64,000 bases of DNA from a virus (UHGV-1550212), one strand, 5' to 3'; numbered from the stretch's first letter, positions 6,366 to 49,455 are shown. Translations and numbers: made by a program. Notes: a model not told the origin generated them from the sequence alone.

Positions 6366-6452
6366 AAGATATTGTGAATTTGGTTGTTTATTCTTAACAA
6401 AATATGTACATACAGATGCAACAGATGATATGTCAGATACACAAAGCTGCAT

Positions 6453-13679: not shown

Positions 13680-13722
13680 CTTATTTATGATTTGATGTCT
13701 TGTTATATTATTATATGTTGAT

Positions 13723-13751
13723 ATTGTACAACGCTAAGTGTCATTTTGCAC
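13723..13751 (-). promoter_or_regulatory. sigma70-like promoter (GTGCAA-N17-TACAAT)
   Basis: Upstream of 13110..13679. Confidence 0.5.
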
Positions 13752-33437: not shown

Positions 33438-34319
33438 TTATCGTTTGAATTTGATGAAGTGTTCAGCATCAAGGCCCTCAAATATGTACGGGTCAAGAGT
33501 TTCCCAGAAGTTTGAGTATGTCGTTGTCTTTGCAATACTTGTCTGCTTTGACAAGTTCATGTTTGGATAGCCAAGCATTGCATAGTGTCGCTCATATATG
33601 TGCATTGACGTTGCATTATGCATATAAGCGCCAAGCTTAAGACCAAGTTCATTTGCGACAAGTTCTTGCAACAAAGTGAATGCAAACTGGTCGTTACAGA
33701 AGCCCCAAATGACATCATTGCTTCGCATATATGTTGTCAAGTACAGCTTATCACCACGAACATTGAAAACAAGATTCAATGTGCACGGCATATCTTTGCC
33801 AGTGTAGTTTGCATATTGCGGCTCATAAATGCTAATAACTGCTCGTCTTGTGCATTCATGATTTCGCAAACGTTCAATGACATCTGCAATCTGCTTGTGC
33901 CAAATTGCGCCATACTGTGAATTGACATTGACGCCATCATCACTGAACTGCTTCCAACGAGGCAAATAACGTTCAATGCATTCAACTGCAGGATTGGCTG
34001 TCATATACCATGCAAATTCTGCAGCAGCATTGAGCTTTTTCCATGGTCGTACATCAATCTTGATTTGTCGCTGTGAAGGGTCCTGAATAACTACAGACAC
34101 ATTCAGCAATTCTTTTGTTCGAGTCACTGTTTGTGCATTGTTGCCCTTTGATTCTACAAACTCACCTCTACAATGAAGTTCATACAAAATTGAGCGAAAT
34201 GCTTCTGTTGCAGTGTTTTCAACGATTGTCGTCTGTTGATAGCATAAATTTGACGACAATGCTTCAGCATCATTGTACTTTATGCTGTCATTGTCATAAG
34301 GTGAATTTTTTGTGTGCAT
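33438..34319 (-). CDS. ThyA-family pyrimidine hydroxymethylase/methylase, cytosine-specific type (dCMP hydroxymethylase-like)
   Basis: ThyA-like blocks EFAWYMTANP, YGAIWHKQ, TRRAVISIYEP, DMPCT (catalytic Cys), YMRSNDVIWGFCNDQFAF where the ThyA Asn aligns with Asp; start trimmed to 34319 to avoid a 116-nt overlap. Confidence 0.55.
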   Translation of the reverse strand: MHTKNSPYDNDSIKYNDAEALSSNLCYQQTTIVENTATEAFRSILYELHCRGEFVESKGNNAQTVTRTKELLNVSVVIQDPSQRQIKIDVRPWKKLNAAAEFAWYMTANPAVECIERYLPRWKQFSDDGVNVNSQYGAIWHKQIADVIERLRNHECTRRAVISIYEPQYANYTGKDMPCTLNLVFNVRGDKLYLTTYMRSNDVIWGFCNDQFAFTLLQELVANELGLKLGAYMHNATSMHIYERHYAMLGYPNMNLSKQTSIAKTTTYSNFWETLDPYIFEGLDAEHFIKFKR

Positions 34320-34344
34320 ATTTTGGGATGTTTGTTTTTTATTA

Positions 34345-35439
34345 TCATACAACGATAGTATCTCGTTTGCAATCTGTTTTGTCAAATATTGAACAACAAT
34401 ACGATGCAGATTGTTCTTTGATTTCAAGAGCTTCATCATTATCAAGTGATGAAATGCCATCTATGTATGCTTTTGCATTGCCAGCAATGTCATCATTTGT
34501 TAACAACGCTGCACGACGTTCAGTGCCAAAGAAGCCAAAGCACAATTGATGTTGCAGTGCTTCACGAGAAGTCTTGTCATCAAACTCTGATTTCATGTGT
34601 TGCATAAATTCGACAATATCATCAATGTCGCATTGAGTAAAGTCAATGCACAATTTATGCATGTACTTGAATCGTTTGTAGTCTGTTGCAAGAATTTCTG
34701 GGTGCACAATGAACAACGTCTTTTTGCTGTCTATTGGATTTGCAATGACTGATGCTTGAACATAATCGACAAGCATACCAGATTCACGAAGTTGCTCAAT
34801 TGTTTTGCCAAACACATGCCCAAGCGTGTCATCAAACCACTTCAAGTATGCTTCACTGTCTTCATCTTTTGACGCGCCAACAATGTAAATCTCATTGACT
34901 CCAAGTGCTTTGAGACGAGTATCAGACAACATAGTATTCAATTGATGCTGCACGTACAGCATTGGGCTGCTATGCAAAACCGTTTTAACAATCTCACAAG
35001 CAATGTCCATATATGCATAGTCAAGCTTTGCAGATTTTGACACATACACTGCACGTTGCTGCAATGGCTCAATTGCCGAGCATGTAGTTACAAAGTTGCC
35101 AACACATTCTGCTACTGCAATGTCATGCAAGTCATCTGCAATGTACACAATACTTGACAAGTCATCAAATGTTTGAACAAGTTGCTGAAGCTTTGTTTTG
35201 TAATTGCAGAGCATCAATGACTTGATGTTGCAATTACTTAGCATTGTCTTGATGAGTCGTTGACCTGCTTCAGTGCTGTCACCAGAAATGACATGCACAT
35301 CGCAGTCAAACCAGTTCAGCATGTCAATTGCATGCCGAACACCATATTGCATTTGTTTTGCAAACTTACCAGATTCATTGAACAGCATTTCACCTGACAT
35401 AATGCCGTCAAAGTCACATACGATTTGAAGTCTGTCCAT
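34345..35439 (-). CDS. HAD-superfamily (KdsC-like) sugar-phosphate phosphatase domain protein with unknown C-terminal domain
   Basis: IVCDFDGIMSGEMLFNESGKF (DxDG motif I), VHVISGDS, YIADDLHDIAV (motif IV), resembling KdsC/YrbI-type phosphatases. Confidence 0.5.
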   Translation of the reverse strand: MDRLQIVCDFDGIMSGEMLFNESGKFAKQMQYGVRHAIDMLNWFDCDVHVISGDSTEAGQRLIKTMLSNCNIKSLMLCNYKTKLQQLVQTFDDLSSIVYIADDLHDIAVAECVGNFVTTCSAIEPLQQRAVYVSKSAKLDYAYMDIACEIVKTVLHSSPMLYVQHQLNTMLSDTRLKALGVNEIYIVGASKDEDSEAYLKWFDDTLGHVFGKTIEQLRESGMLVDYVQASVIANPIDSKKTLFIVHPEILATDYKRFKYMHKLCIDFTQCDIDDIVEFMQHMKSEFDDKTSREALQHQLCFGFFGTERRAALLTNDDIAGNAKAYIDGISSLDNDEALEIKEQSASYCCSIFDKTDCKRDTIVV

Positions 35440-35803: not shown

Positions 35804-38800
35804 TTAACAAATTGATGATGTGCCATCAGTGTTTGCTACAACTGTCAATGCGCTATCAAACTCATCTTGCTGTAACACATGGTCAACTATGAGTGTTTTG
35901 CGAATTGCAGAAAGCTTAGTAAGCAACTGCATCAACACTTGCTGATAATTGATGGTGTTGACGTCATGCTCAGCGCCAACAATCTGCCCGTTGCTAAGCT
36001 TGCCGCTAATTTCATCAATGAGCAAGATGTTGCCAACTTTGTTTAAGCGTTGAGTCAAAATGAGATGCACGATTGCAAGACCTGCGAAAGTCCCTTCCAT
36101 ACCAGACATTTGACTTACACTTCGAATTGACTTCGAGCCCATCAAGTCAATCATCTTTAGCACATTGTTGTCATTGATGTCAAAGAACACTCGGTAGTTC
36201 AATGAATCAAGCAAATCATTGAGCTGTGCATTCAGTGATGTTGCAATTGCTGCAAAGACATATGAAACTAAGCCTCGTTTGCTTGTGCACTGCTTATATG
36301 CATTGTACACCAAGTTTGCAATGTTCCACTTTTTCGAAGCTTGCAAATCTTTCTTGAGAGCTTCAATTCGCACATTGTTTGCTGACAAGTCTGCTTGCAT
36401 TGTTGCAATTTCTGCATTGATGCTTAGCAGTTTTGAGTTTGCTTCAGTTTCATGCTGCTTAGCATCATCAATGTCGACTTGCAATGCAGCGTTTGCCACA
36501 ATATGCTGCTGAGTTTGCTGTGCATGTTCAAGTGCAAATGCTGCAGCAGTCTTGTCAATCTCAAGTTGTTTAAGAGTAGACTCATATGATGCTTTCTTAT
36601 CATATTCTGCTTGAGCAATTTCAAGTTCAGCATTTATTGCAGCCAGTTCTGATTCTACTGCAGATTTTGATTGCAATACATCTTGCTTTGCTTGTTCAGC
36701 TTTACGTTTGATGTCTGCAAGTTGATTTGTGATATCTGCAATTTGCGTTTTGACTGCTTCAACTTCAAGCAATGTTGCTGCAGTAGCCATTGGCTGTGCA
36801 ATGAATGCATCCAAGTCTCTTTGCGCATTGACTACAGTTCTTTGCAAGTCATTAAGCTTTTCTGCATGCATATCATATGCAGCTTTATGTGCTGTATTCA
36901 GTGCAGCAATTATTGCATTTGAATCTGTGACATCAATGATTGCTGCTTGCAATTGCTCAATCTCATACTTCAAATTGCCAATTTTGACAACATTCTCATT
37001 GAATTGCTCTGTCTTTTGCGCGTATTCTTGACGCAACTTAGCAAGCTCAGTTGACAACCACAGCTTGTATGCTTGCCCTGTGCCAGATGTCAAATCATTT
37101 GTGCACACAGGACATTTATCATTTTCAAGTTGCTTTTGCTTGTCTATAACATTGTCGATGTTTGTTTTTGCAGCAGATACTTCTGTTCTAAGTGCATTTT
37201 GAACAGTGTTGATGTCTTCAATTTGCTTTTGCAAAGCATCTATTTTTGCCCGAGTGTCTGCATTATATGACTTGCCAAGATTTACCAGCACAGAATCAAT
37301 GCGCTGCTTTGCTGCATCATATGCAAGCTTTGATTCATCAAGCTTTGTTCTGTACAATGATTCTGCATGCGCAACTTCTTTCTGCACTTTTGCAGATAGC
37401 TCATTCTGTTTTGTAAGCAGCTCAGCATATGTATTGTGCAGCTGTGAGCCAGATGCTATGACATTTGTGTATGCTGCATTAGCTTCATTGTCAATATTAG
37501 TGAGTTGTTGCTCAATCTGCGCTTTTACTGTTTGCAATTTAGACATGTCTTGCAATGCAAGTGCAGCAATGTCAAGCTCAACTTTGCGAATCTTTGCAAC
37601 GATGCTATCGACATTTGCTGTTGCATCTTCTACAGTTAAAATATCTGCAGGAATTTGATGCAGTCTTTTTGAGAGCTCTTCTACTTTTGCACGTGCTTTT
37701 GTAAGTTTTGCAGACCATTCCCTTTGATTATCTTGTCGTAACTGCAAAGAGTCATTGAGTTCATTGCAAGTTGTATTGAGAGACTCAAGTTCTGCTTTTA
37801 TTGCGACATCAGTCAATGCGGGCTTACTAAGGCCATCAAACAATGCGGCCTTTGCAGCATCATTAGAATTGCCCAGTTGCACGAATGTGTTGATGCCAAG
37901 AGTATCAAGCAACCAGTCATTCAATGAATTTGAATCCATTGCAATGATTTGGTCAAGTAATGTCTGATTGATGCAGACATATCGCGACAATTCCCAGATA
38001 GAACCAAAGATTGCGTATAGCGTGTCTTTGATTTCATGCTGTGGCACTACGTAGTCATCTGACAATCTTACAAGCTGCACAGTCTCATTGACTGCTGACA
38101 CGTTATCTCGCCATGAGCCATCTGCATTTATTCGAGAGCCCCGTTTGAATCTACGTTCAAGTGTTCGAGTTAATTTGTAGTGAACATTTTGACCAGCTAC
38201 TACATGTACAAATACACAAGATGCTTCAAGCTTATCATATGACTCATTGTCAATCAATTTGTCATTGAAGTATGTCAAAGCGTTCTGCTTTGTTGCTGCA
38301 GAAGACTGTCCAGCGTCAATAAAGCCAGTCAGCAGCCATTTAATGAGTCTGAAGATTGTTGTTTTGCCATTGCCGTTGTTGCCTCTAACTTGTGTAAGCT
38401 GTGCAAGATTGTCAAAGCTGACATCGACATCTTTCAATGCCATGAACTGATTTGCTTTGACATTTTGAATGACGTATTTTGCAACTTCAGTGTCAAAAGA
38501 CAATTTATCAATTTGCTCATCAATCAATGACTTGAACATGTCAACAAACTGCTGAGCGTCTTCAGTAGCAACTATAGCATTGCGTTCAATGTACGCATTG
38601 ACCCAGTCAAGTGCAGCATCTTTAAGCCATTCAGCAGTTTGAACTTTTTGCAGCAAATTGTCGCCATTTGCATCTACAGCATTGATTGAATCAATGACAG
38701 CAGAATCATACAGAATGTCAATTGCGGCAACAACGTATGAACTTACAAGATTCTGTGCAATGCGCTCAACAATGCCAGACAGTTCGGGCTTTGTGACCTT

Positions 38801-39730
38801 TGACTTGATTTTGATTTTGTTGATGCGACCAGGATTGATGAGTGCAATCTTATCTGTTTTGATGTCATTGTCAATTGTGATTGTATGATAATGCACAAGC
38901 TGCTCAAGCGAATGCCACTCTACTACAATTCGCTTGTTGTCAATATCGATGTCAAGCAAGTTGTAGCCATGTTCTGCAGTGCCCTGTTGCGTTGCAGTGT
39001 CATTCAACAAATAGTCGCCTTCACCAAAATCTCTGACAATTGGCGAGCCGCAGTATGTCAATGTCTTGGTGCCAGAAGTCCATATTGCATGTTTGTGAAT
39101 ATCACCCATTGCAACAAAGTTGCTGTGAAACTGTGTTGCATCTATACGACTGTCATTGTCACCACGAACAATGCAGTCATCAAAGTTGACGCAATTCTTT
39201 ACAGGGTCATGGAACAGCTCAATAACACACATTGATGACAATGCAGCAATCTGCGATTCGTCAAGTGATGCCCAAGGCGAATATGTGCCACCAGACCACT
39301 TCTCATTTTGAGCCCATACTGCAGCAGCAAAACCAGGTGCAAGCAGTTCAACTCTTGAACTGTTGATATACTTGATTCGCTTGTCATCAATTGCAGTTAC
39401 AAGCTTGTCAATGCTATCTGTCCACTGCATTTGTGAACCATCACCAGCATCAAATGTGTTATCACGTTGCTTCAAATCATGATTGCCAGCAGTAATGACA
39501 ATTTGAAGCTTGTCATTGACTTCAAGCATGCCTTTGAGCAGCTTAACAAACAGCGACTCTTCAAGTGAATTGCTGTTCCACTGCTCAAACACATCGCCAA
39601 CAATAAACACAAACTCAACCGACTTTGCTTTGTCAATTAGTTGTTTGTTGATGTGCTCATATTCTACGAAACGTCGTAAATGCCCTTGTCGAACATTATA
39701 TTGAATGTCTGCTATGTGAAGTGCTTTCAT
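35804..39730 (-). CDS. fused SbcD-SbcC (Mre11-Rad50-like) nuclease/ATPase
   Basis: N-terminal calcineurin-like phosphoesterase motifs (HIADIQ, IVGDVFE, TAGNHD, GDIHKH); Walker A GNNGNGKTT; long coiled coil with CPVC zinc hook; C-terminal LLIDE Walker B. Confidence 0.8.
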   Translation of the reverse strand: MKALHIADIQYNVRQGHLRRFVEYEHINKQLIDKAKSVEFVFIVGDVFEQWNSNSLEESLFVKLLKGMLEVNDKLQIVITAGNHDLKQRDNTFDAGDGSQMQWTDSIDKLVTAIDDKRIKYINSSRVELLAPGFAAAVWAQNEKWSGGTYSPWASLDESQIAALSSMCVIELFHDPVKNCVNFDDCIVRGDNDSRIDATQFHSNFVAMGDIHKHAIWTSGTKTLTYCGSPIVRDFGEGDYLLNDTATQQGTAEHGYNLLDIDIDNKRIVVEWHSLEQLVHYHTITIDNDIKTDKIALINPGRINKIKIKSKVTKPELSGIVERIAQNLVSSYVVAAIDILYDSAVIDSINAVDANGDNLLQKVQTAEWLKDAALDWVNAYIERNAIVATEDAQQFVDMFKSLIDEQIDKLSFDTEVAKYVIQNVKANQFMALKDVDVSFDNLAQLTQVRGNNGNGKTTIFRLIKWLLTGFIDAGQSSAATKQNALTYFNDKLIDNESYDKLEASCVFVHVVAGQNVHYKLTRTLERRFKRGSRINADGSWRDNVSAVNETVQLVRLSDDYVVPQHEIKDTLYAIFGSIWELSRYVCINQTLLDQIIAMDSNSLNDWLLDTLGINTFVQLGNSNDAAKAALFDGLSKPALTDVAIKAELESLNTTCNELNDSLQLRQDNQREWSAKLTKARAKVEELSKRLHQIPADILTVEDATANVDSIVAKIRKVELDIAALALQDMSKLQTVKAQIEQQLTNIDNEANAAYTNVIASGSQLHNTYAELLTKQNELSAKVQKEVAHAESLYRTKLDESKLAYDAAKQRIDSVLVNLGKSYNADTRAKIDALQKQIEDINTVQNALRTEVSAAKTNIDNVIDKQKQLENDKCPVCTNDLTSGTGQAYKLWLSTELAKLRQEYAQKTEQFNENVVKIGNLKYEIEQLQAAIIDVTDSNAIIAALNTAHKAAYDMHAEKLNDLQRTVVNAQRDLDAFIAQPMATAATLLEVEAVKTQIADITNQLADIKRKAEQAKQDVLQSKSAVESELAAINAELEIAQAEYDKKASYESTLKQLEIDKTAAAFALEHAQQTQQHIVANAALQVDIDDAKQHETEANSKLLSINAEIATMQADLSANNVRIEALKKDLQASKKWNIANLVYNAYKQCTSKRGLVSYVFAAIATSLNAQLNDLLDSLNYRVFFDINDNNVLKMIDLMGSKSIRSVSQMSGMEGTFAGLAIVHLILTQRLNKVGNILLIDEISGKLSNGQIVGAEHDVNTINYQQVLMQLLTKLSAIRKTLIVDHVLQQDEFDSALTVVANTDGTSSIC

Positions 39731-39731
39731 A

Positions 39732-39781
39732 TTCTAAATGAGATTTAGATTATGTTCGAAATATATGAGAACATATATTAT
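39732..39781 (-). promoter_or_regulatory. conserved structured leader element, copy 2
   Basis: Near-identical to the 32779-32827 copy (one A insertion); immediately upstream of the SbcD-SbcC ATG. Confidence 0.5.
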
Positions 39782-39789
39782 ATGTTGAT

Positions 39790-39818
39790 ATTGTACAACA
39801 TATGTTATCATTTTGCAA
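39790..39818 (-). promoter_or_regulatory. sigma70-like promoter (TTGCAA-N17-TACAAT)
   Basis: Upstream of the SbcD-SbcC gene; leader contains the conserved element. Confidence 0.55.
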
Positions 39819-40155
39819 GCATTTTGATGATTGCATCTATCACAGTTTCACTGAGCAAGTAGTAGACAACGCTTATCAGCAATGATATCAGTACTGCAGC
39901 TGTGATAAATTGCAACGCATTCACAATTGCACGCACAAATGTTATCTGCGTGTTGTATGCAAGCACTATGCAGCATAGCACAATAATGACACACCAGACT
40001 ACAATTGCATATGCAGGCATCAATGAATTTGTCCATATGCAGTACAATACAGTAATTAGCATCAAAAATGCTATTGCTCTGATAACTGACACAATGATGT
40101 CTATGTAAGGCTTCATTGCACGCAAATGAACTCTTGGTTTATGTTGCTTCATCAT
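39808..40155 (-). CDS. multi-pass membrane protein
   Basis: 115 aa, highly hydrophobic. Confidence 0.5.
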   Translation of the reverse strand: MMKQHKPRVHLRAMKPYIDIIVSVIRAIAFLMLITVLYCIWTNSLMPAYAIVVWCVIIVLCCIVLAYNTQITFVRAIVNALQFITAAVLISLLISVVYYLLSETVIDAIIKMLAK

Positions 40156-41390
40156 GACTTTATGTACAATTCTGCAAGTTGTCTGGTGTACAGTCGTGGA
40201 TTATGATATGCTTTCCAATACGCAGTAGACTTTATTGCAGCAAGAATTTCATCATAATGTTTGACTGCTTCTGCTACAACTTCATCAAGCACGCTCAAAT
40301 CTTCTACACTGACAAGCAACCATTTTTCTACAATATCAATGAACTCCTGATTGCAATTGAAGCCATACTTGTAGTTGCAAGTATCAAGTACAAGTGGAAT
40401 GCAATCATTTGTCAATGCTTCAAAAAATCTACGAAGACTGAAACAATTCTCATCATATGATGGAATGCTCAATGTAAACTTGGCAGTCTTGATGAGTTGC
40501 AAATACTCTTCGTATGGAATCAGAGGACCATTGTGCTTCCATTGATTATTGTGTCGTCTTGTCGTGTACTTGAACAAAAACTTTGAATTGTCAAGTTCAC
40601 AAAGATGGTCCATGCGTAAAATGTAGTTATAGCGGTCTCTTCTGTCAGGCCAACTGTCAGTCATCGCAAACACAAAGTCTCTTTGCTTGTCACATTTTGC
40701 TGACATACCTCTATGCTGACACATGCAATACCAATATTGCTGCGATGGGCTGAACTCAAACTTTGAATGATGCTCACTTCCATCTTTGCATTGCTGAACA
40801 TAAATGTTGTCAGGCACAAAGTGAAAATAAAAGTGTCGAATTTGCAAGTCATTGATGTAGTCAAGCTTATGCTGCAATGGGTCTTCACAGAAATTGTAAC
40901 ACTGAATATGCTTTGCTGCTGCGTACTCAGCAACTATGAACGTGCACATCCATTGCAATGCAATATCTTCACTCTTCAAAAAGTTTACAAGCGGCTCATT
41001 TGGATGCGCTTTGCATTCATTGAACATTTTGTACCACTTGCATTGCTCCATATCGTACTTTGATACTGTATTGCCATTAAAGAACGACACAGTGTCAATT
41101 TTGAATGCATCAAGTTGTTTATGCACAATGTCAAGTGCTTGTGCGTATGTGATTGTCTCATCAGACATTATCTGCGCAAACTTGATTGGATGCGCATGCA
41201 AATTTGCGATAGTGTCTGCCGACATTTTACGCTGTGTGTGATAATCGACATACAAAAACTGACACTTGTCTGTAAGCAATTCAAGCATTGCTACAGATTT
41301 CCATCGAATTGCTTGAAAGAAATTGAAGTGTGCAGTTTGAAAGATGAGATGCGTAGGTTTATCAGAATGAGTCAAAGTTTGCATGGACAA
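40152..41390 (-). CDS. putative glycosyltransferase-like protein (cassette copy A1)
   Basis: Paralog of 44432..45988 (shared EDPLQHKL, PSQQYWY, FTLSIPSYDENCFSLRRFFEAL...CIPLV); the last block resembles a GT-B C-terminal motif. Confidence 0.4.
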   Translation of the reverse strand: MSMQTLTHSDKPTHLIFQTAHFNFFQAIRWKSVAMLELLTDKCQFLYVDYHTQRKMSADTIANLHAHPIKFAQIMSDETITYAQALDIVHKQLDAFKIDTVSFFNGNTVSKYDMEQCKWYKMFNECKAHPNEPLVNFLKSEDIALQWMCTFIVAEYAAAKHIQCYNFCEDPLQHKLDYINDLQIRHFYFHFVPDNIYVQQCKDGSEHHSKFEFSPSQQYWYCMCQHRGMSAKCDKQRDFVFAMTDSWPDRRDRYNYILRMDHLCELDNSKFLFKYTTRRHNNQWKHNGPLIPYEEYLQLIKTAKFTLSIPSYDENCFSLRRFFEALTNDCIPLVLDTCNYKYGFNCNQEFIDIVEKWLLVSVEDLSVLDEVVAEAVKHYDEILAAIKSTAYWKAYHNPRLYTRQLAELYIKS

Positions 41391-42547
41391 ATGTCGCAGT
41401 TATGTTGATGTTTGTGTTTATTTATGAAGTCATATGTCACTGCAAAAAAGTGCTTTGCAATGTCATATCGAGTTTTCAAATATGCTGCTTGGCGTTCACA
41501 AAACGCTGCATAAATGTCTGGGTGTCGTTTGAATGCAGCAATGCGTTGCTGTACTTGTTCTGCAGAATGTACATATGACACTTTGCTCAAATATGCATCA
41601 TCTGCAAATAATCGTCTGTCTTTGTCAACTGCGCAATCAACAAAAGTTGCAATTCGTGCAACAATGGCTTCACCAACACGATTTGGCATCAACCCATATT
41701 GCTCATATTGTTGGTCACCGATAGCAATGTGCGCTGCTGCATATGACATTGCATATGGCACACTATAAAATGGCACACTAAAATCAAATGAGCAATTTGA
41801 CTGTAGTAGTTGCGTTTGTGCATCAGACAATCTACTTGTCAAGTTGCCTGTATGTTTGTGCTCACCAAGAAAACTTGAGCGACAACCTGAATCTACATAG
41901 TATCGAATGACTTTGTTTATGCGACTGTCAGATAGCATATGCCAATCTCTTGTAGCATATATCAAGTCTACTGTTTTTGCACCAATATGACGAGGCTCTA
42001 TCGCAACATTGCTGTATGTTGGCAGCATGAACAATGGCAGCCATTTGACATTGTTGAACACTGAATGTTCATTTGACAAATTCATGCACTGGCTAAGTTC
42101 AAGTACTGGCTCATCATACACGCCATGCAGTTCAACTCTGCCTGCATGCACAAAGTTGACACGCTTAAATGGAAATCGCATATCAGTGCAAACCGTCATT
42201 CTTGCTGCAGTAGACATTCGCCACATAGCATGCAGCTTAACAACTGCTTCGGCTTGAGGTCGAGGCAGCATATTTAGCAAATCAATCCAGCCACCCCACA
42301 AAATCCAAACATCATTTGAACAGATGTTGAATTGCAAACTCAATATGTCTTCTACTGTTGCAGCAATGATGTCATGCCCATTGATGCTTGCAAGGTGCTT
42401 TCGTTGATTTGCAATAAGAATGACTTGACTGAACGGAGACTCTGGAAATGACACAAGCGCCTTTGCAAACAACACGGGTTCTTGTGATACCAAGTTGTTT
42501 GAGTATGGGTCGATTATGCAATCAAGCTTGTGTATGAAAAGTCTCAT
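41372..42547 (-). CDS. hypothetical enzyme-like protein (cassette copy B1)
   Basis: Paralog of 45985..47151 (shared N-terminus LFI.K.D, TDxRF.F, L.PNR). Confidence 0.45.
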   Translation of the reverse strand: MRLFIHKLDCIIDPYSNNLVSQEPVLFAKALVSFPESPFSQVILIANQRKHLASINGHDIIAATVEDILSLQFNICSNDVWILWGGWIDLLNMLPRPQAEAVVKLHAMWRMSTAARMTVCTDMRFPFKRVNFVHAGRVELHGVYDEPVLELSQCMNLSNEHSVFNNVKWLPLFMLPTYSNVAIEPRHIGAKTVDLIYATRDWHMLSDSRINKVIRYYVDSGCRSSFLGEHKHTGNLTSRLSDAQTQLLQSNCSFDFSVPFYSVPYAMSYAAAHIAIGDQQYEQYGLMPNRVGEAIVARIATFVDCAVDKDRRLFADDAYLSKVSYVHSAEQVQQRIAAFKRHPDIYAAFCERQAAYLKTRYDIAKHFFAVTYDFINKHKHQHNCDICPCKL

Positions 42548-43278
42548 TTTGCAGACGATTCAAAAAATTTGTAGACATCACAGTTAGCAATGTGGTCATT
42601 CCAAGCATCTTCAGAGTCTGCAACAAAGCCACAATGACAGCGTTTTGGCTGCCAAACTGGTTCAACTACTGCAGGCATTGCTTCTTCAATAGTGTTTGCA
42701 GGTTCATTATCTGCTGGCAATACTTCAACGTCTTCAACTTGTGCTGCATCTTGTTGTGCACGCTGCTCAATGACATTGCCCTCAAAGTCAAACTGAATGC
42801 CAGCTTGTTCTGCTTTTGTACGATTGTTACGAGCTACGAACAAATACGCAAAGATGAATTCGACAAGCGCTATGGCAAGTGACTTCAGTGCATTGACAAG
42901 AAGCATGATGCCCGTTGACAAGTGGCCGTCAAAGCTCAAAAATACGAACACGCATGTAAAGCATGACATAAACACTGCAATCAGTGGAATGTTCTTGTAT
43001 TTTGGCAACAAATCAGAGTTGACTGATGTAAGCAACACAACGAATTGATAACCTATTGCAAGCCAATAGTCGCCAAACACTGCATAGATATGCGTAGTGA
43101 TGCCAATAAGAAATGTGATAGTCACAATCATAATGAGCAACACACTTGTCAGAAAGTCTGCAATAGAATTGCTGAGCTTGTCATACCAGTGTTTGTTGAC
43201 AATTGATGTGTTGGCTACGCGCACTTTACTAAGTGCATCTATGCCGCTTTTGATATTTGATTGTGCTTTCATACACAT
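42544..43278 (-). CDS. membrane protein with cytoplasmic acidic C-terminal domain
   Basis: 244 aa, about four TM helices, then Cys/His-containing tail (CHCGF...HIANCD). Confidence 0.5.
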   Translation of the reverse strand: MCMKAQSNIKSGIDALSKVRVANTSIVNKHWYDKLSNSIADFLTSVLLIMIVTITFLIGITTHIYAVFGDYWLAIGYQFVVLLTSVNSDLLPKYKNIPLIAVFMSCFTCVFVFLSFDGHLSTGIMLLVNALKSLAIALVEFIFAYLFVARNNRTKAEQAGIQFDFEGNVIEQRAQQDAAQVEDVEVLPADNEPANTIEEAMPAVVEPVWQPKRCHCGFVADSEDAWNDHIANCDVYKFFESSAK

Positions 43279-43284
43279 ATAATG

Positions 43285-43422
43285 TTATATCATATCTACA
43301 CACAAAGCAAATGCTACTGCAAGTGCAGCCATAATTGCATATACGACTATCGATGCAATATAATCTGATTCAGGATTCCACTTATCAGGTGTGTTAAGCT
43401 TGTGATACTTGTCTCGTCTCAT
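43285..43422 (-). CDS. possible small membrane protein (45 aa)
   Basis: Hand-translated MRRDKYHKLNTPDKWNPESDYIASIVVYAIMAALAVAFALCVDMI; sits just downstream of a terminator-like hairpin; below the track length cutoff. Confidence 0.25.
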   Translation of the reverse strand: MRRDKYHKLNTPDKWNPESDYIASIVVYAIMAALAVAFALCVDMI

Positions 43423-43430
43423 CTTGAGTC

Positions 43431-43481
43431 AAAAAATGATGGCTGCTGCTACATTTTGTGAAATCATGTGCAGCAGCCATC
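43431..43481 (-). terminator. terminator-like hairpin (possible attenuator or sRNA 3' end)
   Basis: 12-bp perfect stem GATGGCTGCTGC/GCAGCAGCCATC with 20-nt loop, followed by UUUUUU on the minus strand; lies ~55 nt downstream of a promoter. Confidence 0.5.
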
Positions 43482-43530
43482 TGGCAGGTTTCTTGCTTTG
43501 TAAAGCTTGGATAGAGGATGGATTTTATAT
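43431..43530 (-). ncRNA. candidate ~100-nt small RNA or transcription attenuator (speculative)
   Basis: Defined only by promoter (-10 at 43537-43542) upstream and a strong hairpin/U6 terminator at its 3' end; no sequence family recognised. Confidence 0.2.
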
Positions 43531-43536
43531 GTTGAT

Positions 43537-43565
43537 ATTGTACAACATGCAAAATGCATTTGCAT
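43537..43565 (-). promoter_or_regulatory. sigma70-like promoter (ATGCAA-N17-TACAAT) with adjacent 17-bp tandem repeats
   Basis: Followed ~55 nt downstream by the terminator-like hairpin 43438-43481. Confidence 0.4.
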
Positions 43566-43594
43566 TTTGATACAACATGCATTTTGATACAACA
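43561..43594. repeat. perfect 17-bp tandem direct repeat x2 (TGCATTTTGATACAACA)
   Basis: Read directly; overlaps the -35 region of promoter 43537-43565, next to an AAAATGCA-TT-TGCATTTT palindrome. Confidence 0.7.
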
Positions 43595-43601
43595 TATATT
43601 G

Positions 43602-43817
43602 TCATTTTGCACAGTCTGAGGCAATCAAATCTTTGTCAAAGCATTCATCTATAATGTCTTCAATAAGATACGCTTCGACATTGTTAAGCTTCAAGATATC
43701 TACGAGTTTTGCTTTGATATCGCAAGCTAATGCAGATTCAACTGTATGCAATATGACTGATGATGCGACATGCTTGTCTGTCATCATTTGTAATTGCTGT
43801 GGTGTTACTCTACTCAT
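43602..43817 (-). CDS. hypothetical small protein
   Basis: 71-aa ORF with 4-nt overlap to the upstream kinase gene. Confidence 0.35.
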   Translation of the reverse strand: MSRVTPQQLQMMTDKHVASSVILHTVESALACDIKAKLVDILKLNNVEAYLIEDIIDECFDKDLIASDCAK

Positions 43818-44386
43818 GCGCCAAGTTCAGCTAAGCATTTTAGCACATTGTCTTGCAGACTTACATTGTTGTCGATTTCGACAATATGCAATGGTGAGTT
43901 CTTTCGCCACTCATCATATGCAGCAATCATTTTATTGCGTTTGTTGACATCAATGTTGACATCGCCACAAAAGTTATCAACAAAATCTGGTGCAACATCA
44001 CGCTTGCATAAGAACACTATATGCGGCAATGTTGCAAGCTTCTTTTCATATGCTTCAAAGAATGCTTGATGCTTATCAGTGTGCAACTCTTTGTAAAGCG
44101 TTGTGTTAAAGATTTGATGTGTGATGAACGAACGGTCACACAAAAATGTTGCTTTGCCAAAGCCTTTAGAGTCATTTCCAATGAACTCTAAGAAGAAGCG
44201 CCAATCATAAAAGAACGCTTCATTGAGGTCCCAAGGTTCGGGCATTGGGTCATCACCTGACTCATGCTGTTGCCACCAAGAACGAGATGTTCGTTTGCAA
44301 TTGATAAACCATGGGCGCCACTTCATCAATTCATTGATGAGTGTTGTTTTGCCTGAAGCTTCTACACCTTCAAATATCGCTATCAT
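43814..44386 (-). CDS. P-loop deoxynucleoside monophosphate kinase-like protein
   Basis: Walker A IFEGVEASGKTT and a CDRSF (DRY/DRS-like) motif as in thymidylate/dNMP kinases. Confidence 0.6.
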   Translation of the reverse strand: MIAIFEGVEASGKTTLINELMKWRPWFINCKRTSRSWWQQHESGDDPMPEPWDLNEAFFYDWRFFLEFIGNDSKGFGKATFLCDRSFITHQIFNTTLYKELHTDKHQAFFEAYEKKLATLPHIVFLCKRDVAPDFVDNFCGDVNIDVNKRNKMIAAYDEWRKNSPLHIVEIDNNVSLQDNVLKCLAELGA

Positions 44387-44411
44387 TGTGTATTATGTTT
44401 GATTTTTGATT

Positions 44412-44440
44412 ACAGTACAACGTAGTTATGCTCATTGCAC
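44412..44440 (-). promoter_or_regulatory. weak sigma70-like promoter (GTGCAA-N17-TACTGT)
   Basis: Upstream of the dNMP kinase gene; -10 is a poor match. Confidence 0.3.
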
Positions 44441-45988
44441 TTCTACGAATGGCTCTTTCAACACAAAGCTGTCACCATTGCAACATGCGGCTGAGCCATC
44501 GTCTGCATCAAGTGCACATGACATATCAGACTTGCAGAACTTGCAATATAAACATGACCATGCATGACTCATGAAGTTGTTTGCTTCACAAATTGCGCAA
44601 CGCTCATGCATAAGTGCATTGTCGCAATTATCACAAGACTTCTTGATTGGCACAGTTTTGTTGATGTATGCAAGATGCAATGCAATATCATACACAAAGT
44701 CACCCGTATATTGCTGAATGAAATCAGTATGCCACAACTCTTTTAACAATTGTGCATGTCTATATGGCTGAACAATGTCTTCAAGATGCTGCAAGTCATC
44801 ATCGCTAACCATGAGCTTCTTAATGACAAATTGTTTGAACTGTGGCCATCTGTCAAACATATAGAGTTTGCATGAGTTGTGCACAAGTGGAACACAGCCA
44901 AGCACAATGCTTTCACAGAATCTACGCAAACTAAAACAGTTTGCATCATATGACGGCACAATCAATGTGAATCTGCTATGCTTGATGAGTTCAAGGTATG
45001 TGTCATATGGCAGTAGCTTATCTGACAATTGCTGTTGTTGTTTGTCTCTGCTGAAAAATCTGAACACAATACCCTTGTCAATTGCATCTTGATTGTGCAG
45101 ATGCATGAGTTTGTTGATGAGTTCTGTGCGTTCAGTTTTGTCTCGCCAAGTATTCGTCAATGCAAATGCAAAATTCAGTCGCTTGTCATCAAACGTCGCT
45201 TCAATATCATTCCAAGTTTTGTCATGCAAATACCAGTATTGCTGTGATGGGCACCATCCATAATATGCAATAGCATCTTGTTCTGCTGTAACGTCATACA
45301 CATATGCAGAATTGTATTCAAGGCCAAGCCTTTTGACGTTGTTGCAGTCATGAAAGTACCAATGCTGCACTTTGAATATCTTTGATGCACTGAATGCGCT
45401 TTCATATGGCCCTGAATAGCGATAGTCAATGTAATTGAGCTTGTGCTGCAATGGGTCTTCGACAAAGTTGTTTATGACTGTGCCTTGTTGTTTGCCCTTA
45501 GTCTTGCGAGCATTCAATGCAACATTGTATTGCATGATGACTGACAGCATCTCATACACTACATACATGAGTGCTTTGTAGACTGAGCCTGCTGCGTCAA
45601 TTAGTGGCAAATCACGTTTGACTGATGTAGCGCCAAATGTCTTGCAATATGCAGAAAATGTGTCAAGTTCTGCTTGCTGAAATGAATTGCATGCACCATT
45701 GAATATGTTGAATGTTGCAATGTAGCTCATATTGCAAGATGTCATTGACATATCAAGACGCTTCATAATGTCGACAATGCGACATTGAGCAAAATCTGAC
45801 ACATCAACATATTTGACATGATGGCCTGATGTAGTCAAGCCATCTGCGACATCTTTCATCTGTGGCACAAAGCCTACAACAATGAATAAGTCATCTTTGT
45901 TTGCTCGTTCAAACATTGCTGCACTTTTCCAAGTCAATGAATTGAAAAAGTCTATGTAGCCAGTTTGAGTGATTATATGCGTTCTCAT
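44432..45988 (-). CDS. putative glycosyltransferase-like protein (cassette copy A2) with Cys-rich C-terminal extension
   Basis: Paralog of 40152..41390 (EDPLQHKLNY, PSQQYWY, FTLIVPSYDANCFSLRRFCESIVLGCVPLV); extra CDNCDN...C cluster. Confidence 0.4.
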   Translation of the reverse strand: MRTHIITQTGYIDFFNSLTWKSAAMFERANKDDLFIVVGFVPQMKDVADGLTTSGHHVKYVDVSDFAQCRIVDIMKRLDMSMTSCNMSYIATFNIFNGACNSFQQAELDTFSAYCKTFGATSVKRDLPLIDAAGSVYKALMYVVYEMLSVIMQYNVALNARKTKGKQQGTVINNFVEDPLQHKLNYIDYRYSGPYESAFSASKIFKVQHWYFHDCNNVKRLGLEYNSAYVYDVTAEQDAIAYYGWCPSQQYWYLHDKTWNDIEATFDDKRLNFAFALTNTWRDKTERTELINKLMHLHNQDAIDKGIVFRFFSRDKQQQQLSDKLLPYDTYLELIKHSRFTLIVPSYDANCFSLRRFCESIVLGCVPLVHNSCKLYMFDRWPQFKQFVIKKLMVSDDDLQHLEDIVQPYRHAQLLKELWHTDFIQQYTGDFVYDIALHLAYINKTVPIKKSCDNCDNALMHERCAICEANNFMSHAWSCLYCKFCKSDMSCALDADDGSAACCNGDSFVLKEPFVEVQ

Positions 45989-47151
45989 GATTTGAATGTT
46001 TGTTCAAGAATTGTATAGCACTGTGCAATCATTGTTGCAAGAGCTTTTTGCTGAAGCTGTTTGCAATTTGAAGATATTGTGTATTGCTGACGCTCAGTTG
46101 TAGTACTGCTTAATGTCGCAAATTGCAGGTACTCATCTTCTGACATGATATCAGCAAACAATGCAGACAATTCATAATCTACAATGACATTTGAGCAGTT
46201 TGCAAGTACGCCTTCAACCCATCGATTTGGCAACAAACATGCTTGCACATACAATGAATCGCCGACTACAAGATTGCACATTGACTGCGACATTACATAC
46301 GTCATCATGTCATATGGCACTTTGTACTTAAGTGTGAAGTTTTGTGCTGCTGACTTAATTGCTTGCAGAATTGTGTCATCAAGATATGATGTTATAAGGC
46401 AAGTATTGTATGCCTGCATAATGTAACGCTCAATCACGCTTCTACGATACTCGTCAAGATATGTGAAACCTGCACAACTTGCACAACATGCATATTGCTG
46501 CTTTATGTCAGCAAAGCTACACACATGCGCTTCAATTGCATTTTGCATTGTTGCTTGTCGTTTGAGCAATCTTGGCTCTTTAATGCATTGAAGCTTCAAT
46601 GCATTGACTGCTGCAATGATTTGCAATGGCACAAACACGCATTGAGACTCATCAAGCCAAGCATACTTGAGATTTTTATGTTGACACAGATGCGTAATGT
46701 TGTCTTTTTGTGATTCTAAGTACTCTTTGTAATTATGCAATCGCTTTGTCAATGTGCACTCTTTGTCAAAATCAAATCGCAAATCAGTTGTTAGTGTAAA
46801 TTTGCGAACATTTGACAAGCACCATGCTTTGAATGCATTCCACAGAACATCTTGCTGAAATTCTGAACAATGTTCAAGAGCAGCCTTTGAGCCCTGCCAG
46901 AATATTGCGCAATCATCTGATTTTGCACACTTCAGCATATCTTGCCATGCATGTATGCTATTGATGATATGCACTTTATTATGCACAAGCTCATTAAGTG
47001 TTGCATGCTTGTTCTCAGGGTCGCCAAACACGTATACTGTATCAAACATTGTTTGAACAAACCCTGCAAATGCAATGGGTTCTGTATGTTTAAGATGCTG
47101 TATGTCTGAACGCACACATGTGTCAAATTTCAAAATGAAGAGTTTGCTCAT
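45985..47151 (-). CDS. hypothetical enzyme-like protein (cassette copy B2)
   Basis: Paralog of 41372..42547; promoter at 47181-47210. Confidence 0.45.
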   Translation of the reverse strand: MSKLFILKFDTCVRSDIQHLKHTEPIAFAGFVQTMFDTVYVFGDPENKHATLNELVHNKVHIINSIHAWQDMLKCAKSDDCAIFWQGSKAALEHCSEFQQDVLWNAFKAWCLSNVRKFTLTTDLRFDFDKECTLTKRLHNYKEYLESQKDNITHLCQHKNLKYAWLDESQCVFVPLQIIAAVNALKLQCIKEPRLLKRQATMQNAIEAHVCSFADIKQQYACCASCAGFTYLDEYRRSVIERYIMQAYNTCLITSYLDDTILQAIKSAAQNFTLKYKVPYDMMTYVMSQSMCNLVVGDSLYVQACLLPNRWVEGVLANCSNVIVDYELSALFADIMSEDEYLQFATLSSTTTERQQYTISSNCKQLQQKALATMIAQCYTILEQTFKS

Positions 47152-47848
47152 ATGCTTTGCAATTATCTATTACATGTTGATATTGTACTTCATCTATGAT
47201 GTGATTTGCAATGACACCATATGACGTGTCATACATTGGCATCTTCTCATATGACAATGCTGCGTCAAGATTGCATATCACATAATTGCAATGCACAATG
47301 TCATCTACATTGTCACTAACTGCTACGATATTGACGCAATTTGCAAGAAATGCATCATCAAAGTCTACTTGATTGCATGCAACCTCATAATCTGCAGCAC
47401 TTCTTGGGTACCAATATAACTCAATGCCGGCACTACTAAGTAGTCGCAAGCCATCTATGTGATGATACAAGTCAACAAAATGCACTTGCTTAACGCCTGC
47501 TTGCAAAATAAGCTTTGCGCAATCAATGCATGGACTATATGTTACATATAGCACTGCGTCATTTGCAGTCGCATTGCCATATTTGCACAGCTTCATCAAT
47601 GCATTTGATTCTGCATGCAAAACTTCTTTGTTGGTTTTGATGCCTGCTGATGTTGCATGTTCACAACAATTTGACATGCCAGTTGGCATGCCATTGTAGC
47701 CATCTGAAATTATGCAGCCATCTTTTACAAGCAATGCGCCGACTTTTGCTCGCTGAGCATGTGAATTTAATGACCAGAGCTCAGCCATTTTAAGATATAT
47801 GAGATTTCGTTGAAACCACTTTGTTTCAGACCAAGTTAGCCATTTCAT
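47123..47848 (-). CDS. dCMP deaminase (zinc-dependent cytidine/deoxycytidylate deaminase family)
   Basis: HAESNAL and YSPCIDCAKLI zinc-binding motifs; ~90-aa C-terminal extension. Confidence 0.8.
   Translation of the reverse strand: MKWLTWSETKWFQRNLIYLKMAELWSLNSHAQRAKVGALLVKDGCIISDGYNGMPTGMSNCCEHATSAGIKTNKEVLHAESNALMKLCKYGNATANDAVLYVTYSPCIDCAKLILQAGVKQVHFVDLYHHIDGLRLLSSAGIELYWYPRSAADYEVACNQVDFDDAFLANCVNIVAVSDNVDDIVHCNYVICNLDAALSYEKMPMYDTSYGVIANHIIDEVQYQHVIDNCKAYEQTLHFEI
47181..47210 (-). promoter_or_regulatory. sigma70-like promoter (TTGCAA-N18-TACAAT)
   Basis: Upstream of 45985..47151, inside the 3' end of the dCMP deaminase gene. Confidence 0.45.
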
Positions 47849-47852
47849 ATGC

Positions 47853-49235
47853 TTATAGTGAATTTATGATTTTGCTGAAGTCTGTTACAATGTTTGAATG
47901 CAACTCAATGAGATAGTTGTCTTGCAATGTCATAAGCTCATCAAGTTCATCTACACTTAATGACTTGAAGACTTCTGCACAATGCTTGGCATTTTTGATG
48001 TGTGCGACTTTATGATACTTGATAAAGTCAGGACACACACAATTATTCACGTACATACAAGGCAAGCCTGCAAGCATTGATTCAGTTGCTCTGAATGTAA
48101 TTGCGTTGCATTGTTTCATATTCTCTTCACACACAATGTATGCAAAATCGAACTGTGACAAGTATGTTAACATGTCAAAATACTTGATTGTGCCATCATA
48201 GACATGTGGCATATCAATGTCAATATTGCCGACAACATGAGTTTCGATGTCTGCGCAGCCAAGCAAATCAATGACTTCTTGTTTGCGTTCAGCACACATG
48301 TCATTCCAAGCCACCATCGGCATTGCAGTAGTCAACTTGCCTGATTGCAATTTTGCTAAACGTTTTTCATTATGTGATGCATACAATGGAATGCCTTCAA
48401 GTCTTGCATGCTGAATTGCGTTGACATTGATTTCTGTCAACATTGACAACGCATTATGTATGTTCTGCGCTTGTGTGACAACTGTCATCTTTTTGCAGTG
48501 CAATCTAAAGTTTGCAATGTGTGGCACGAGTCGTAAATCATACCATAGCCATACAATGTCGCCCTTCCATGATTCAATGAGCTGCTTGTGCTGTTTGTAG
48601 ATGACTGACTGACTCATCGAGTCATTCATTGCTGAGCATACAATGTACAACACACCATATTTGTCAATTGAGTGCTGCACATAGTCAGCTGAGCAGCATA
48701 GCACATCTTTGTCGAAAAGTTTTGGGTCATGCACTTCTGCATCATCTACAATAAGATGCGCCTTGTATTGATGCCGCTTTGTTACATCAATGATGCGAGC
48801 AATTGCGAAACATTCTCTGCTTTGAATGTCTGTCTTGTCTTGTCGCAGCTGGTCTTGTGTTCGTACTGGATACGCAGGTTTCAGTATTACAGGCACAAAA
48901 TGTGTTTTTGCAGAATATGGTGCATCTACTGCAGCAAACTCCGCGTTGCATCGTTGTGAATGCAGATGTCGTGCATATGATTGCAACAATTCATGAATCA
49001 TTGCAATATACTCTTCCAATTCAAACAGCTCGTGTTCAGTTGCGTTTGTTATGTCAACTACGACAGTTTGTCGCACAATTGGATACACACAAATAACGTA
49101 ATCATTATATGGCAGTGGAATGCCTATAAATGTTGAGCATCTGTTTCGAAGCCATGCAATGCAATCAACATCAAACACAATTTCATATTGCTGCTGCAAA
49201 GCATTTAATTGCGCTATAATCAAATCATTGTGCAT
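47853..49235 (-). CDS. putative GT-B fold glycosyltransferase
   Basis: C-terminal ...YIVCEENMKQCNAITFRATESMLAGLPCMYVN resembles the E-x7-E / G.P donor-binding motif of GT1/GT4 enzymes; two tandem promoters upstream. Confidence 0.45.
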   Translation of the reverse strand: MHNDLIIAQLNALQQQYEIVFDVDCIAWLRNRCSTFIGIPLPYNDYVICVYPIVRQTVVVDITNATEHELFELEEYIAMIHELLQSYARHLHSQRCNAEFAAVDAPYSAKTHFVPVILKPAYPVRTQDQLRQDKTDIQSRECFAIARIIDVTKRHQYKAHLIVDDAEVHDPKLFDKDVLCCSADYVQHSIDKYGVLYIVCSAMNDSMSQSVIYKQHKQLIESWKGDIVWLWYDLRLVPHIANFRLHCKKMTVVTQAQNIHNALSMLTEINVNAIQHARLEGIPLYASHNEKRLAKLQSGKLTTAMPMVAWNDMCAERKQEVIDLLGCADIETHVVGNIDIDMPHVYDGTIKYFDMLTYLSQFDFAYIVCEENMKQCNAITFRATESMLAGLPCMYVNNCVCPDFIKYHKVAHIKNAKHCAEVFKSLSVDELDELMTLQDNYLIELHSNIVTDFSKIINSL

Positions 49236-49264
49236 GTTCGTATTGTTTTATCATATATGAATAT

Positions 49265-49293
49265 ATTGTACAACATGTATTGAGCTTTTGCAC
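49265..49293 (-). promoter_or_regulatory. sigma70-like promoter, proximal of a tandem pair (GTGCAA-N17-TACAAT)
   Basis: 29 nt upstream of the GT-B gene ATG (49235). Confidence 0.5.
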
Positions 49294-49317: not shown

Positions 49318-49346
49318 ATTGTACAACATAAAGTGCATACTTGCAC
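49318..49346 (-). promoter_or_regulatory. sigma70-like promoter, distal of a tandem pair (GTGCAA-N17-TACAAT)
   Basis: ~53 bp upstream of the first copy; a third, degenerate unit overlaps the terminator palindrome. Confidence 0.45.
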
Positions 49347-49374: not shown

Positions 49375-49410
49375 ACATAAAACAAGCAGACTGCAATTGC
49401 AGTCTGCTTG
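49375..49410 (-). terminator. intrinsic terminator
   Basis: 28-bp perfect palindrome CAAGCAGACTGCAATTGCAGTCTGCTTG followed by UUUUAUG on the minus strand; downstream of 49456..50001. Confidence 0.55.
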
Positions 49411-49455
49411 CACTTTACTAACCCTTAAAATCAATGACACTATGTCAATGTCATT

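Follow-up and report, generated by a model that had tools for sequence, protein, structure and literature searches.

A phage gene cluster with five predicted GT-B glycosyltransferases that may build glycans on 5-hydroxymethylcytosine DNA

The window analyzed here, a 64,000-nucleotide (nt) stretch of UHGV-1550212 from an uncultured phage of about 176 kb, carries a gene cluster predicted to encode five glycosyltransferases of the GT-B fold: two members of a family that we call A (A1 and A2) and three relatives of the T4 beta-glucosyltransferase (BGT), which we call B1, B2, and B3. On balance, we lean toward the view that this is a DNA-hypermodification cluster in a phage with T4-like replication, in which 5-hydroxymethylcytosine (5hmC) would take the place of cytosine and be glycosylated on the DNA, with B enzymes priming and A enzymes extending the glycan. 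The whole glycosyltransferase region lies on the minus strand, and its five GT-B genes are predicted as follows, in the order of transcription (aa, amino acids):

47853-49235, minus strand: B3, BGT-like GT-B glycosyltransferase, 460 aa (profile comparisons)
45985-47151, minus strand: B2, BGT-like GT-B glycosyltransferase, 388 aa (paralog of B1)
44432-45988, minus strand: A2, A-family GT-B glycosyltransferase, 518 aa (paralog of A1)
41372-42547, minus strand: B1, BGT-like GT-B glycosyltransferase, 391 aa (PHROG 7922; profile against PDB 1bgt)
40152-41390, minus strand: A1, A-family GT-B glycosyltransferase, 410-412 aa

According to the list of open reading frames (ORFs), transcription proceeds from B3 through a dCMP deaminase, B2, A2, a kinase, a 71-aa ORF (orf71), a membrane protein, B1, A1, and a 115-aa membrane protein to a Mre11-Rad50 fusion, and both cassettes are transcribed B then A. 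The genes of each pair overlap, B2/A2 by 4 nt and B1/A1 by 13-19 nt; a TTG start gives an A1 of 412 aa and an ATG at 41384 gives one of 410 aa, the length of the homolog P0006. An earlier note on this DNA, made from the sequence alone, had given exact coordinates for A1, B1, A2, and B2 and an order of A-B, membrane protein, kinase, A-B. The genes are indeed present, but on the minus strand B precedes A, and orf71 lies between the kinase and the membrane gene. By BLASTP, A1 aligns with A2 over 446 columns at 30% identity (E = 6e-48), and B1 with B2 over 368 columns at 24% (E = 1e-15). These matches are far above chance, the two pairs are true paralogs, and the paralogy claimed in the note survives alignment. 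What does not hold is the simple two-by-two cassette, since B3, which lies outside the region described there, makes the number of GT-B genes five. A and B were also considered as paralogs of each other, and this was rejected, the comparison of their narrow profiles being insignificant (hhalign, E = 0.42). Since, in addition, A aligned with a broad BGT profile at the donor-site block only, the two are treated as separate families sharing one fold.

The B proteins, whose function the earlier note had regarded as unknown, are related to T4 BGT. B1 falls in PHROG 7922 'beta-glucosyltransferase' (E = 5e-8), and a profile built from B1, B2, and five database homologs matched PDB 1bgt/1nzd with E = 2.7e-9 over BGT residues 95-334. 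The invariant B motif TD122MRFPF (B1 numbering) is aligned on TD100IRLPF of T4, and in 1nzd, the D100A entry, an Ala falls at that position and anchors the register of the alignment. Equivalents of T4 E22, T99, D100, R102, Q137, Y261, and E272 are invariant in a 9-sequence alignment (T4 BGT, B1, B2, and orthologs from four other phages); at the position of R269, B1, B2, and most homologs have Arg, and L001 has Lys (L numbers denote related phages, and P numbers homologous proteins). From the Morera and Lariviere structures, we take Asp100 to be the catalytic base, together with Glu22, and Arg269, Glu272, and Tyr261 to bind UDP. The catalytic Asp and the donor Arg/Glu are thus conserved, and because B is BGT-like with a conserved active site, both members of each pair are predicted to be transferases.

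More remote comparisons point in the same direction. An exhaustive HMMER search of 1.84 billion representatives returned 8 proteins at E<=1e-30 and 229 at E<=1e-3. Pfam PF09198 ('T4 beta-glucosyltransferase') was found in 21 of the 40 proteins scanned (38 sampled homologs plus B1 and B2), and T4 BGT matched a joint profile of B and its remote homologs with an E-value of 6e-71. In the AlphaFold2 model of B1, the C-domain is poorly modelled (predicted local distance difference test, pLDDT, 59), making it too poor for residue-level inference; its sole significant Foldseek match in PDB is T4 BGT (E = 2.4e-5). Judged from these comparisons, B is a branch of the BGT family that has diverged deeply and kept its active-site residues, and B1, B2, and B3 are a divergent sister group rather than canonical members of PF09198.

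The 460-aa ORF, B3, was considered as an A-type protein and rejected, being of B type by profile comparison. It matched the broad BGT-like profile with 98.2% probability (hhalign, E = 4.7e-14; hmmsearch, E = 3.4e-14), and the B3 profile matched the combined T4 BGT and B profile with 96.2% probability (E = 2.3e-9, 323 columns). Searched directly against PDB, the B3 profile found no glycosyltransferase, and the link to BGT runs via intermediate profiles. Its motifs YDLRLVP and FRATE, corresponding to T4 TD100IRLPF and R269..E272, respectively, are invariant in four homologs. B3 has an N-terminal extension of about 115 aa and is very rare, with only two database clusters.

The A proteins had been described as ending with a block that resembles the GT-B donor-binding motif. 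The block, IPSYDxNCFSLRRFFEAxxxxCIPL, is present at residues ~309-334 of A1, but it is not terminal, lying ~80 aa (A1) or ~160 aa (A2) before the C-terminus. A1 and A2 share all 36 invariant columns of the family, and their LRRFFEA block can be aligned with the R..E donor motif of BGT-like proteins (E = 2e-6). A has two Rossmann-like domains, the C-terminal one holding the site for the nucleotide sugar, which places it in the GT-B superfamily. Together with the donor-site similarity to Pfam families and the invariant motif, the structure comparison bears out the assignment of the A proteins as GT-B transferases. The profile and structure comparisons that the note had proposed link A to glycosyltransferases by structure and B by sequence profile. 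By its position at the end of the last strand of the N-terminal domain, the invariant E169-D170 of A1 may provide the catalytic base.

The A-family comparison gave the following values:

T4 BGT: 17.9
WlaC: 17.5
PimA: 15.9
phage HY126 glycosyltransferase: 15.2
T4 AGT: 15.1
EXTL3: 11.6

Pfam matches of A were sub-threshold and confined to the C-terminal domain, namely to Exostosin_GT47 and Glyco_trans_1_2. For Exostosin (PF03016), the scores of 22.4 bits (A1) and 26.3 bits (A2) fall short of the 33.4-bit cutoff and cover profile positions ~158-260 of 293; the sub-threshold E-values were 6e-6 and 9e-5, and precomputed matches exist for 7 of the 12 A homologs. The C-terminal donor-site block of A therefore resembles the GT47 motif, but the structure of A is not closest to GT47 members, and membership in GT47 is unsupported. 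In the comparison with viral models, a 'DNA beta-glucosyltransferase', the glycosyltransferase of SP-15, and a cyanophage DNA alpha-glucosyltransferase are among the best matches. The A profile against PDB sequences gave no meaningful match and no glycosyltransferase. A is a new GT-B family and not a demonstrable member of GT47. It is also rare. Of 5.8 billion protein clusters (at 90% identity), 12 contain homologs, and in these there are dozens of nearly identical variants, found on contigs of 176-181 kb in many metagenome assemblies. A search of 185,579 reference genomes found no A family, IMG/VR yielded the same phage species only, and A1 and B1, searched by tblastn against 50,697 records of cultured phages, had marginal matches only, none of them T-even.

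Comparison of cassette content among related phages, another check that the note had suggested, shows between 3 and 5 glycosyltransferases per phage. With proteins that are ~45-50% identical, L008 keeps deaminase-B2-A2-kinase...membrane-B1-A1, with the B2 ortholog in the same position, and the duplication is therefore ancient. L001 has B3-deaminase-A2...kinase...membrane-B1-A1 without B2, and A2 orthologs are thus found in both L001 and L008; L009 and L010 have membrane-B1-A1, and L004 has an extra B followed by B-A. B and A genes adjoin in six lineages, the conserved core being the pair that lies beside Mre11-Rad50. Near-identical DNA was not found among cultured phages. A 175.6-kb relative from IMG/VR is collinear and 95% identical, with all cluster genes intact, and against this 95%-identical relative the cluster genes have ratios of nonsynonymous to synonymous substitution (dN/dS) of 0.03-0.17 (0.12 for B3 and 0.17 for B2). 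Purifying selection acts on every gene of the cluster. In B2, the C-terminal half (45800-46600) is a hot spot of divergence from this relative, L006, with 85-87% nucleotide identity compared with ~96% in the flanks and an intact ORF; it may reflect allelic exchange or shifting specificity.

The earlier expectation of a hydroxymethylated base is in line with the surrounding genes, which fit glycosylation of a hydroxymethylated pyrimidine. The genes relevant to nucleotide supply are:

47123-47848, minus strand: dCMP deaminase, 241 aa (Pfam dCMP_cyt_deam_1, E = 6e-21; PHROG 174, E = 1e-43)
43814-44386, minus strand: P-loop nucleotide kinase, thymidylate-kinase-like, 190 aa (weak Pfam matches; PHROG 761)
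33438-34460, minus strand: thymidylate synthase (TS) homolog, predicted dCMP hydroxymethylase (PDB matches; signature residues)
29156-30214: canonical ThyA (E = 4e-76)
9216-9707: dUTPase
8840-9214, minus strand: MazG-type NTP pyrophosphohydrolase, candidate dCTPase (Pfam MazG, E = 8e-9)

The best PDB matches of the TS homolog are the CMP hydroxymethylase MilA (E = 1.4e-22) and the T4 dCMP hydroxymethylase (E = 2e-11), and its motif DMPC...MRSNDVIWGFCND matches DFMC...MRSNDVVFGFRND of T4 gp42. In E. coli ThyA numbering, it carries L143D and N177D and keeps D169 (RSND), as does T4 gp42, whereas the window's own ThyA reads QRSCD...PIN at those positions. 5hodCMP synthases of the RB69/DLP3 type carry D169N (2026 NAR paper, PMC13326640), and 5-hydroxycytosine (5hoC) was rejected as the base, this signature being missing from the TS homolog. 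5-hydroxymethyluracil (5hmU) was likewise rejected, given the Asp at the position of N177 and the presence of a canonical ThyA. The signature of L143D, N177D, and D169 thus predicts 5hmC rather than 5hoC or 5hmU, and the TS homolog probably makes 5hmC, which phage DNA would carry for cytosine. Taken at its longest, the ORF of the TS homolog shares 116 nt with the gene upstream, and its alignment to T4 gp42 and homologs begins near residue 78; the true start is therefore probably the ATG at 34319, giving 293 aa.

The kinase has weak Pfam matches to Thymidylate_kin, dNK, and AAA_28, and shares 36% identity with the 'thymidylate kinase' that Chryseobacterium phage MA9V-2 encodes next to its own TS homolog. 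This Tmk-like protein is likely an hmdCMP kinase. It shows no similarity to T4 gp1, and a role as a T4 gp1-type dNMP kinase was rejected; a DNA 5-hydroxymethyl kinase was also considered, and nothing found supports it. The MazG-type pyrophosphohydrolase is a candidate dCTPase that would exclude dC, and analogous dCTP pyrophosphatases are present in RB69 and DLP3 (PMC13326640, Table 1). Adjoining the dCMP hydroxymethylase gene is one for a 364-aa protein (34345-35439, minus strand; 8410-9780 in L007) with an intact KdsC-type HAD phosphatase N-domain, DFDGI...DDxxD, whose C-terminal ~200 aa match nothing in the families searched. A role for it in sugar activation was considered, and it could be a nucleotide or sugar-phosphate phosphatase. 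The trio of KdsC-like protein, Tmk-like kinase, and TS homolog is also found in MA9V-2.

Taken together, we hypothesize the following pathway. The MazG-type dCTPase, the gp42-type dCMP hydroxymethylase, and the Tmk-like kinase would supply hmdCTP. After replication, B1, B2, and B3 would flip out 5hmC and attach to its hydroxymethyl group a sugar taken from a UDP-sugar of the host, with the conserved Asp equivalent to T4 Asp100 acting as the base, and the translationally coupled A1 and A2 would then add a further sugar onto the B product. The two B-A pairs and B3 might in this way produce two or more different di- or oligosaccharide decorations, or extend one glycan successively, and such varied glycans would broaden protection against restriction, type IV, and glycosylase defences. 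We infer DNA as the acceptor, the B-then-A order, and the sugar identities. That B primes and A extends is proposed because B is a clear BGT homolog, because the pairs are translationally coupled, and because published adjacent glycosyltransferase pairs work sequentially. Adjacent phage glycosyltransferases act sequentially on 5hmC (bioRxiv 10.1101/2023.12.21.572611), and DLP3 requires gp76 together with gp77 to place the third arabinose on its DNA, with a Tmk-like kinase embedded among the glycosyltransferases (PMC13326640). With these precedents, the two successive or alternative sugar additions suggested in the note are the most reasonable reading, although acceptor, sugar, and activity are all deduced rather than observed.

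Several observations weigh against this hypothesis. The best structural match of A is T4 BGT, and A could therefore itself act on the base. The conserved residues are those of donor binding and general base, not of the acceptor, so that it is homology and the neighbouring genes that point to DNA as the acceptor. PF09198 is unmatched by B1, B2, and B3 even at E<=1, and Pfam and NCBIfam are both empty for B1 and B2; identity to T4 BGT is only 16-21%, and the B1 structure model is poor, as described above. The five glycosyltransferases are near neutral or acidic (pI 5.7-7.6), whereas T4 BGT has a pI of 9.05. Among the relatives, glycosyltransferase content varies (A2 without B2 in L001; two B and one A in L004), and a one-to-one coupling of B then A is not universal. 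Finally, no sugar-nucleotide biosynthesis genes were identified within the window, and the module includes a strongly conserved membrane protein that the proposed pathway leaves unexplained.

One alternative is that A and B act in parallel, each directly on 5hmC in the manner of the T4 alpha- and beta-glucosyltransferases, and produce a mosaic of monosaccharides that differ in anomeric linkage, sugar, or sequence context. However, B-A adjacency, mostly with overlapping stop and start codons (the window pairs, L004, L008, and L009), is kept across lineages that are ~35-70% identical, which argues for a functional pair, and the published adjacent pairs are sequential. We regard parallel action as unlikely.

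The tails of these proteins bear on another possibility. A2 has a Cys-rich C-terminal tail of ~75 aa with four CxxC motifs (44432-44660), which is kept in P0016 and P0017, and B1 has a His/Cys-rich C-terminal tail, HKHQHNCDICPCKL (41372-41420), kept in P0001-P0005 and missing from the B1 ortholog of L001. Each pair thus has one Cys/His-rich, metal-binding-like tail (in B1 and in A2), A1 and B2 being without tails. It is conceivable that each B-A pair is an obligate heterocomplex, in which one subunit is catalytic per step and the other binds DNA or the partner, with the tail serving to dock or to bind DNA. The presence of exactly one tail per pair and the translational coupling would fit such a complex, as would DLP3 gp76 and gp77, which function only together (PMC13326640). 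Nevertheless, A and B both keep full donor-site and putative base motifs under purifying selection, the tail is absent from L001's B1 ortholog, and relatives have unpaired A2 and extra B genes. An obligate heterocomplex therefore seems to us quite improbable.

A further alternative is suggested by the membrane protein encoded next to B1-A1. The remaining genes of the region, including those on either side of this protein, are:

43602-43817, minus strand: orf71, small acidic ORF, 71 aa (ORF list)
42544-43278, minus strand: membrane protein with four transmembrane (TM) segments, 244 aa
39808-40155, minus strand: small membrane protein, 115 aa, between A1 and Mre11-Rad50 (an L009 ortholog lies in the same position)
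35804-39730, minus strand: Mre11-Rad50 fusion, 1308 aa (ORF list; Metallophos and AAA_23/SMC)

The 4-TM protein is encoded immediately upstream of B1-A1 in the window and in L001, L008, L009, and L010. With no amino-acid change relative to L006, it is the most conserved gene of the cluster, and it has no family match. Its C-terminal tail, C-x-C...H...C, is zinc-finger-like, and its Cys/His and polar TM residues are invariant, which suggests an enzymatic or transport role rather than that of a passive anchor. The glycosyltransferases might then, together with this protein, modify an acceptor other than DNA, for example a phage protein or a glycan or lipid of the host envelope, for superinfection exclusion or receptor masking. 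The constant position of this conserved protein before B1-A1 would be accommodated, as would the non-basic character of the glycosyltransferases and the GT47-like and group-1-like motifs of A, which are typical of polysaccharide glycosyltransferases. By contrast, B and B3 are specifically akin to the DNA beta-glucosyltransferase family, with PF09198 dominating the remote homologs and T4 BGT being the sole significant PDB match, and the cluster is embedded in genes of nucleotide metabolism and replication. Moreover, in T4 the small membrane genes imm and 47.1 adjoin the gt genes without a functional link. We consider a non-DNA acceptor very unlikely.

Returning to sequential glycosylation by B and A, its most elaborate form would have every 5hmC carry a branched or long glycan (three or more sugars) or two distinct disaccharides, built by all five GT-B enzymes, with A as a dedicated partner of the BGT-like primers and the 4-TM zinc-finger protein as an integral part, either as a membrane tether or in donor supply. 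This is speculative, and we are inclined to doubt it; if true, this DNA-glycan machinery would be more complex than any characterised so far.

The arrangement of regulatory elements suggests that the cluster is expressed in defined units. A 23-nt motif, ATGTTGTACAATATCAACATATA (allowing <=3 mismatches), occurs five times where 0.00 copies are expected, always on the coding strand and upstream of genes:

49254-49276, minus strand: motif copy heading B3
47171-47193, minus strand: motif copy heading B2
43526-43548, minus strand: motif copy heading the membrane-B1-A1 unit
39779-39801, minus strand: motif copy heading Mre11-Rad50
13712-13734, minus strand: fifth motif copy

The motif is a probable phage promoter or regulatory element, and a shorter core, ATGTTGTACAAT, is also present at 49318-49329. 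Between an upstream 214-aa gene and B3 lies a terminator-like hairpin (49382-49411, minus strand; 13-bp stem with 7 GC pairs), which would mark the start of the glycosyltransferase cluster as a separate unit. The motif copies at the heads of units, together with this hairpin, suggest co-regulated units. Apart from this strong hairpin, scans for sigma-70 promoters and terminators gave counts at chance. Orf71 and the membrane gene are separated by 323 nt, in which a 17-nt repeat, ATGTTGTATCAAAATGC, occurs twice in tandem (43561-43597, minus strand) beside a copy of ATGTTGTACAATATCAACATATA. As for orf71 itself, it has no match in the family libraries scanned and is kept in L006 with a dN/dS of 0.08.

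The cluster is surrounded by nucleotide-metabolism and replication genes (deaminase, kinase, hydroxymethylase, Mre11-Rad50, gp32, and helicases). Mre11 and Rad50 form one protein here and are separate in T4 (gp47 and gp46), and the fusion is retained in L001, L004, and L009 at 1309-1313 aa. The family-B DNA polymerase is apparently split as well, into 10096-11601 (exonuclease and N-terminal palm) and 6510-7802 (C-terminal part), both on the minus strand and ~2.3 kb apart, with the dUTPase, the MazG pyrophosphohydrolase, and a 275-aa ORF between them. Further genes at 57701-58315, 11617-12027, and 4875-6485 encode a papain-like protein (Peptidase_C1), a DUF488-N3a protein, and a protein with head-fiber dimeric and PEGA domains, respectively.

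Glycosylated hydroxymethylcytosine is the classic phage counter-defence, and recent studies have revealed a chemistry far more diverse than the glucose of T4. A sugar coat on the DNA of this phage would most likely shield it from bacterial nucleases, and the cluster offers three very divergent BGT-like enzymes and a new, rare GT-B family. It also provides a natural experiment, in which an anciently duplicated, putative primer-extender pair has been retained at ~45% protein identity. If distinct glycans are indeed built on the DNA, these enzymes could become new tools for selective 5hmC labelling, and they would allow a test of the trade-off in glycan complexity against type IV restriction enzymes and DNA glycosylases. 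If they merely repeat T4-like monoglucosylation, they would be a routine addition to a known theme.

Among known systems, T2 and T6 offer a matching concept for such a pathway. Their gentiobiosyl-5hmC is made by an alpha-glucosyltransferase followed by a beta-glucosyl-HMC-alpha-glucosyltransferase, resulting in a disaccharide on 5hmC; as would be the case here, the first enzyme acts on the base and the second on the sugar. The difference is that the presumed primer in our phage is BGT-like, the presumed extender belongs to a new family, and the pair is duplicated. The clusters for arabinosyl-5-hydroxycytosine in RB69, DLP3, and RL38J1 (PMC13326640) are similar in combining several GT-B genes with a Tmk-like 'nucleotide kinase' and a MilA-like TS homolog. 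However, their glycosyltransferases are GT4-like rather than BGT-like or of the A family, whereas here D169 is kept in the TS homolog and no genes for arabinose or UDP-sugar synthesis were found in the window. In the MT/TET (5mYOX) clusters, adjacent glycosyltransferases prime and extend mono-, di-, and trisaccharides on 5hmC, and some of these GT-B enzymes resemble T4 BGT (bioRxiv 10.1101/2023.12.21.572611). As far as the text of that preprint shows, the A family is not among the classes it describes. 5hmC arises there post-replicatively, through a methyltransferase and a dioxygenase, while in our phage it is predicted to arise pre-replicatively through a dCMP hydroxymethylase.

T4 itself also shares features with the cluster. 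B1, B2, and B3 are detectable homologs of T4 BGT (CAZy GT63, PF09198; PDB 1bgt, 1c3j, and 1nzd) with equivalents of its active-site residues conserved, the predicted nucleotide pathway has the same components (gp42-type hydroxymethylase, dCMP deaminase, ThyA, kinase, and candidate dCTPase), and A1, upstream of the gp47/46 homolog, has the position that a-gt has in T4. The two differ in that no homolog of T4 AGT (GT72) is detectable by sequence here (A profile against PDB), in that the window proteins are acidic or neutral and T4 BGT is basic, and in that there are three BGT-like paralogs here instead of one, two of them coupled to the sequence-unrelated A family. As predicted from its sequence, the cluster is an unusually glycosyltransferase-rich variant of a known phage strategy, the glycosylation of 5hmC DNA.

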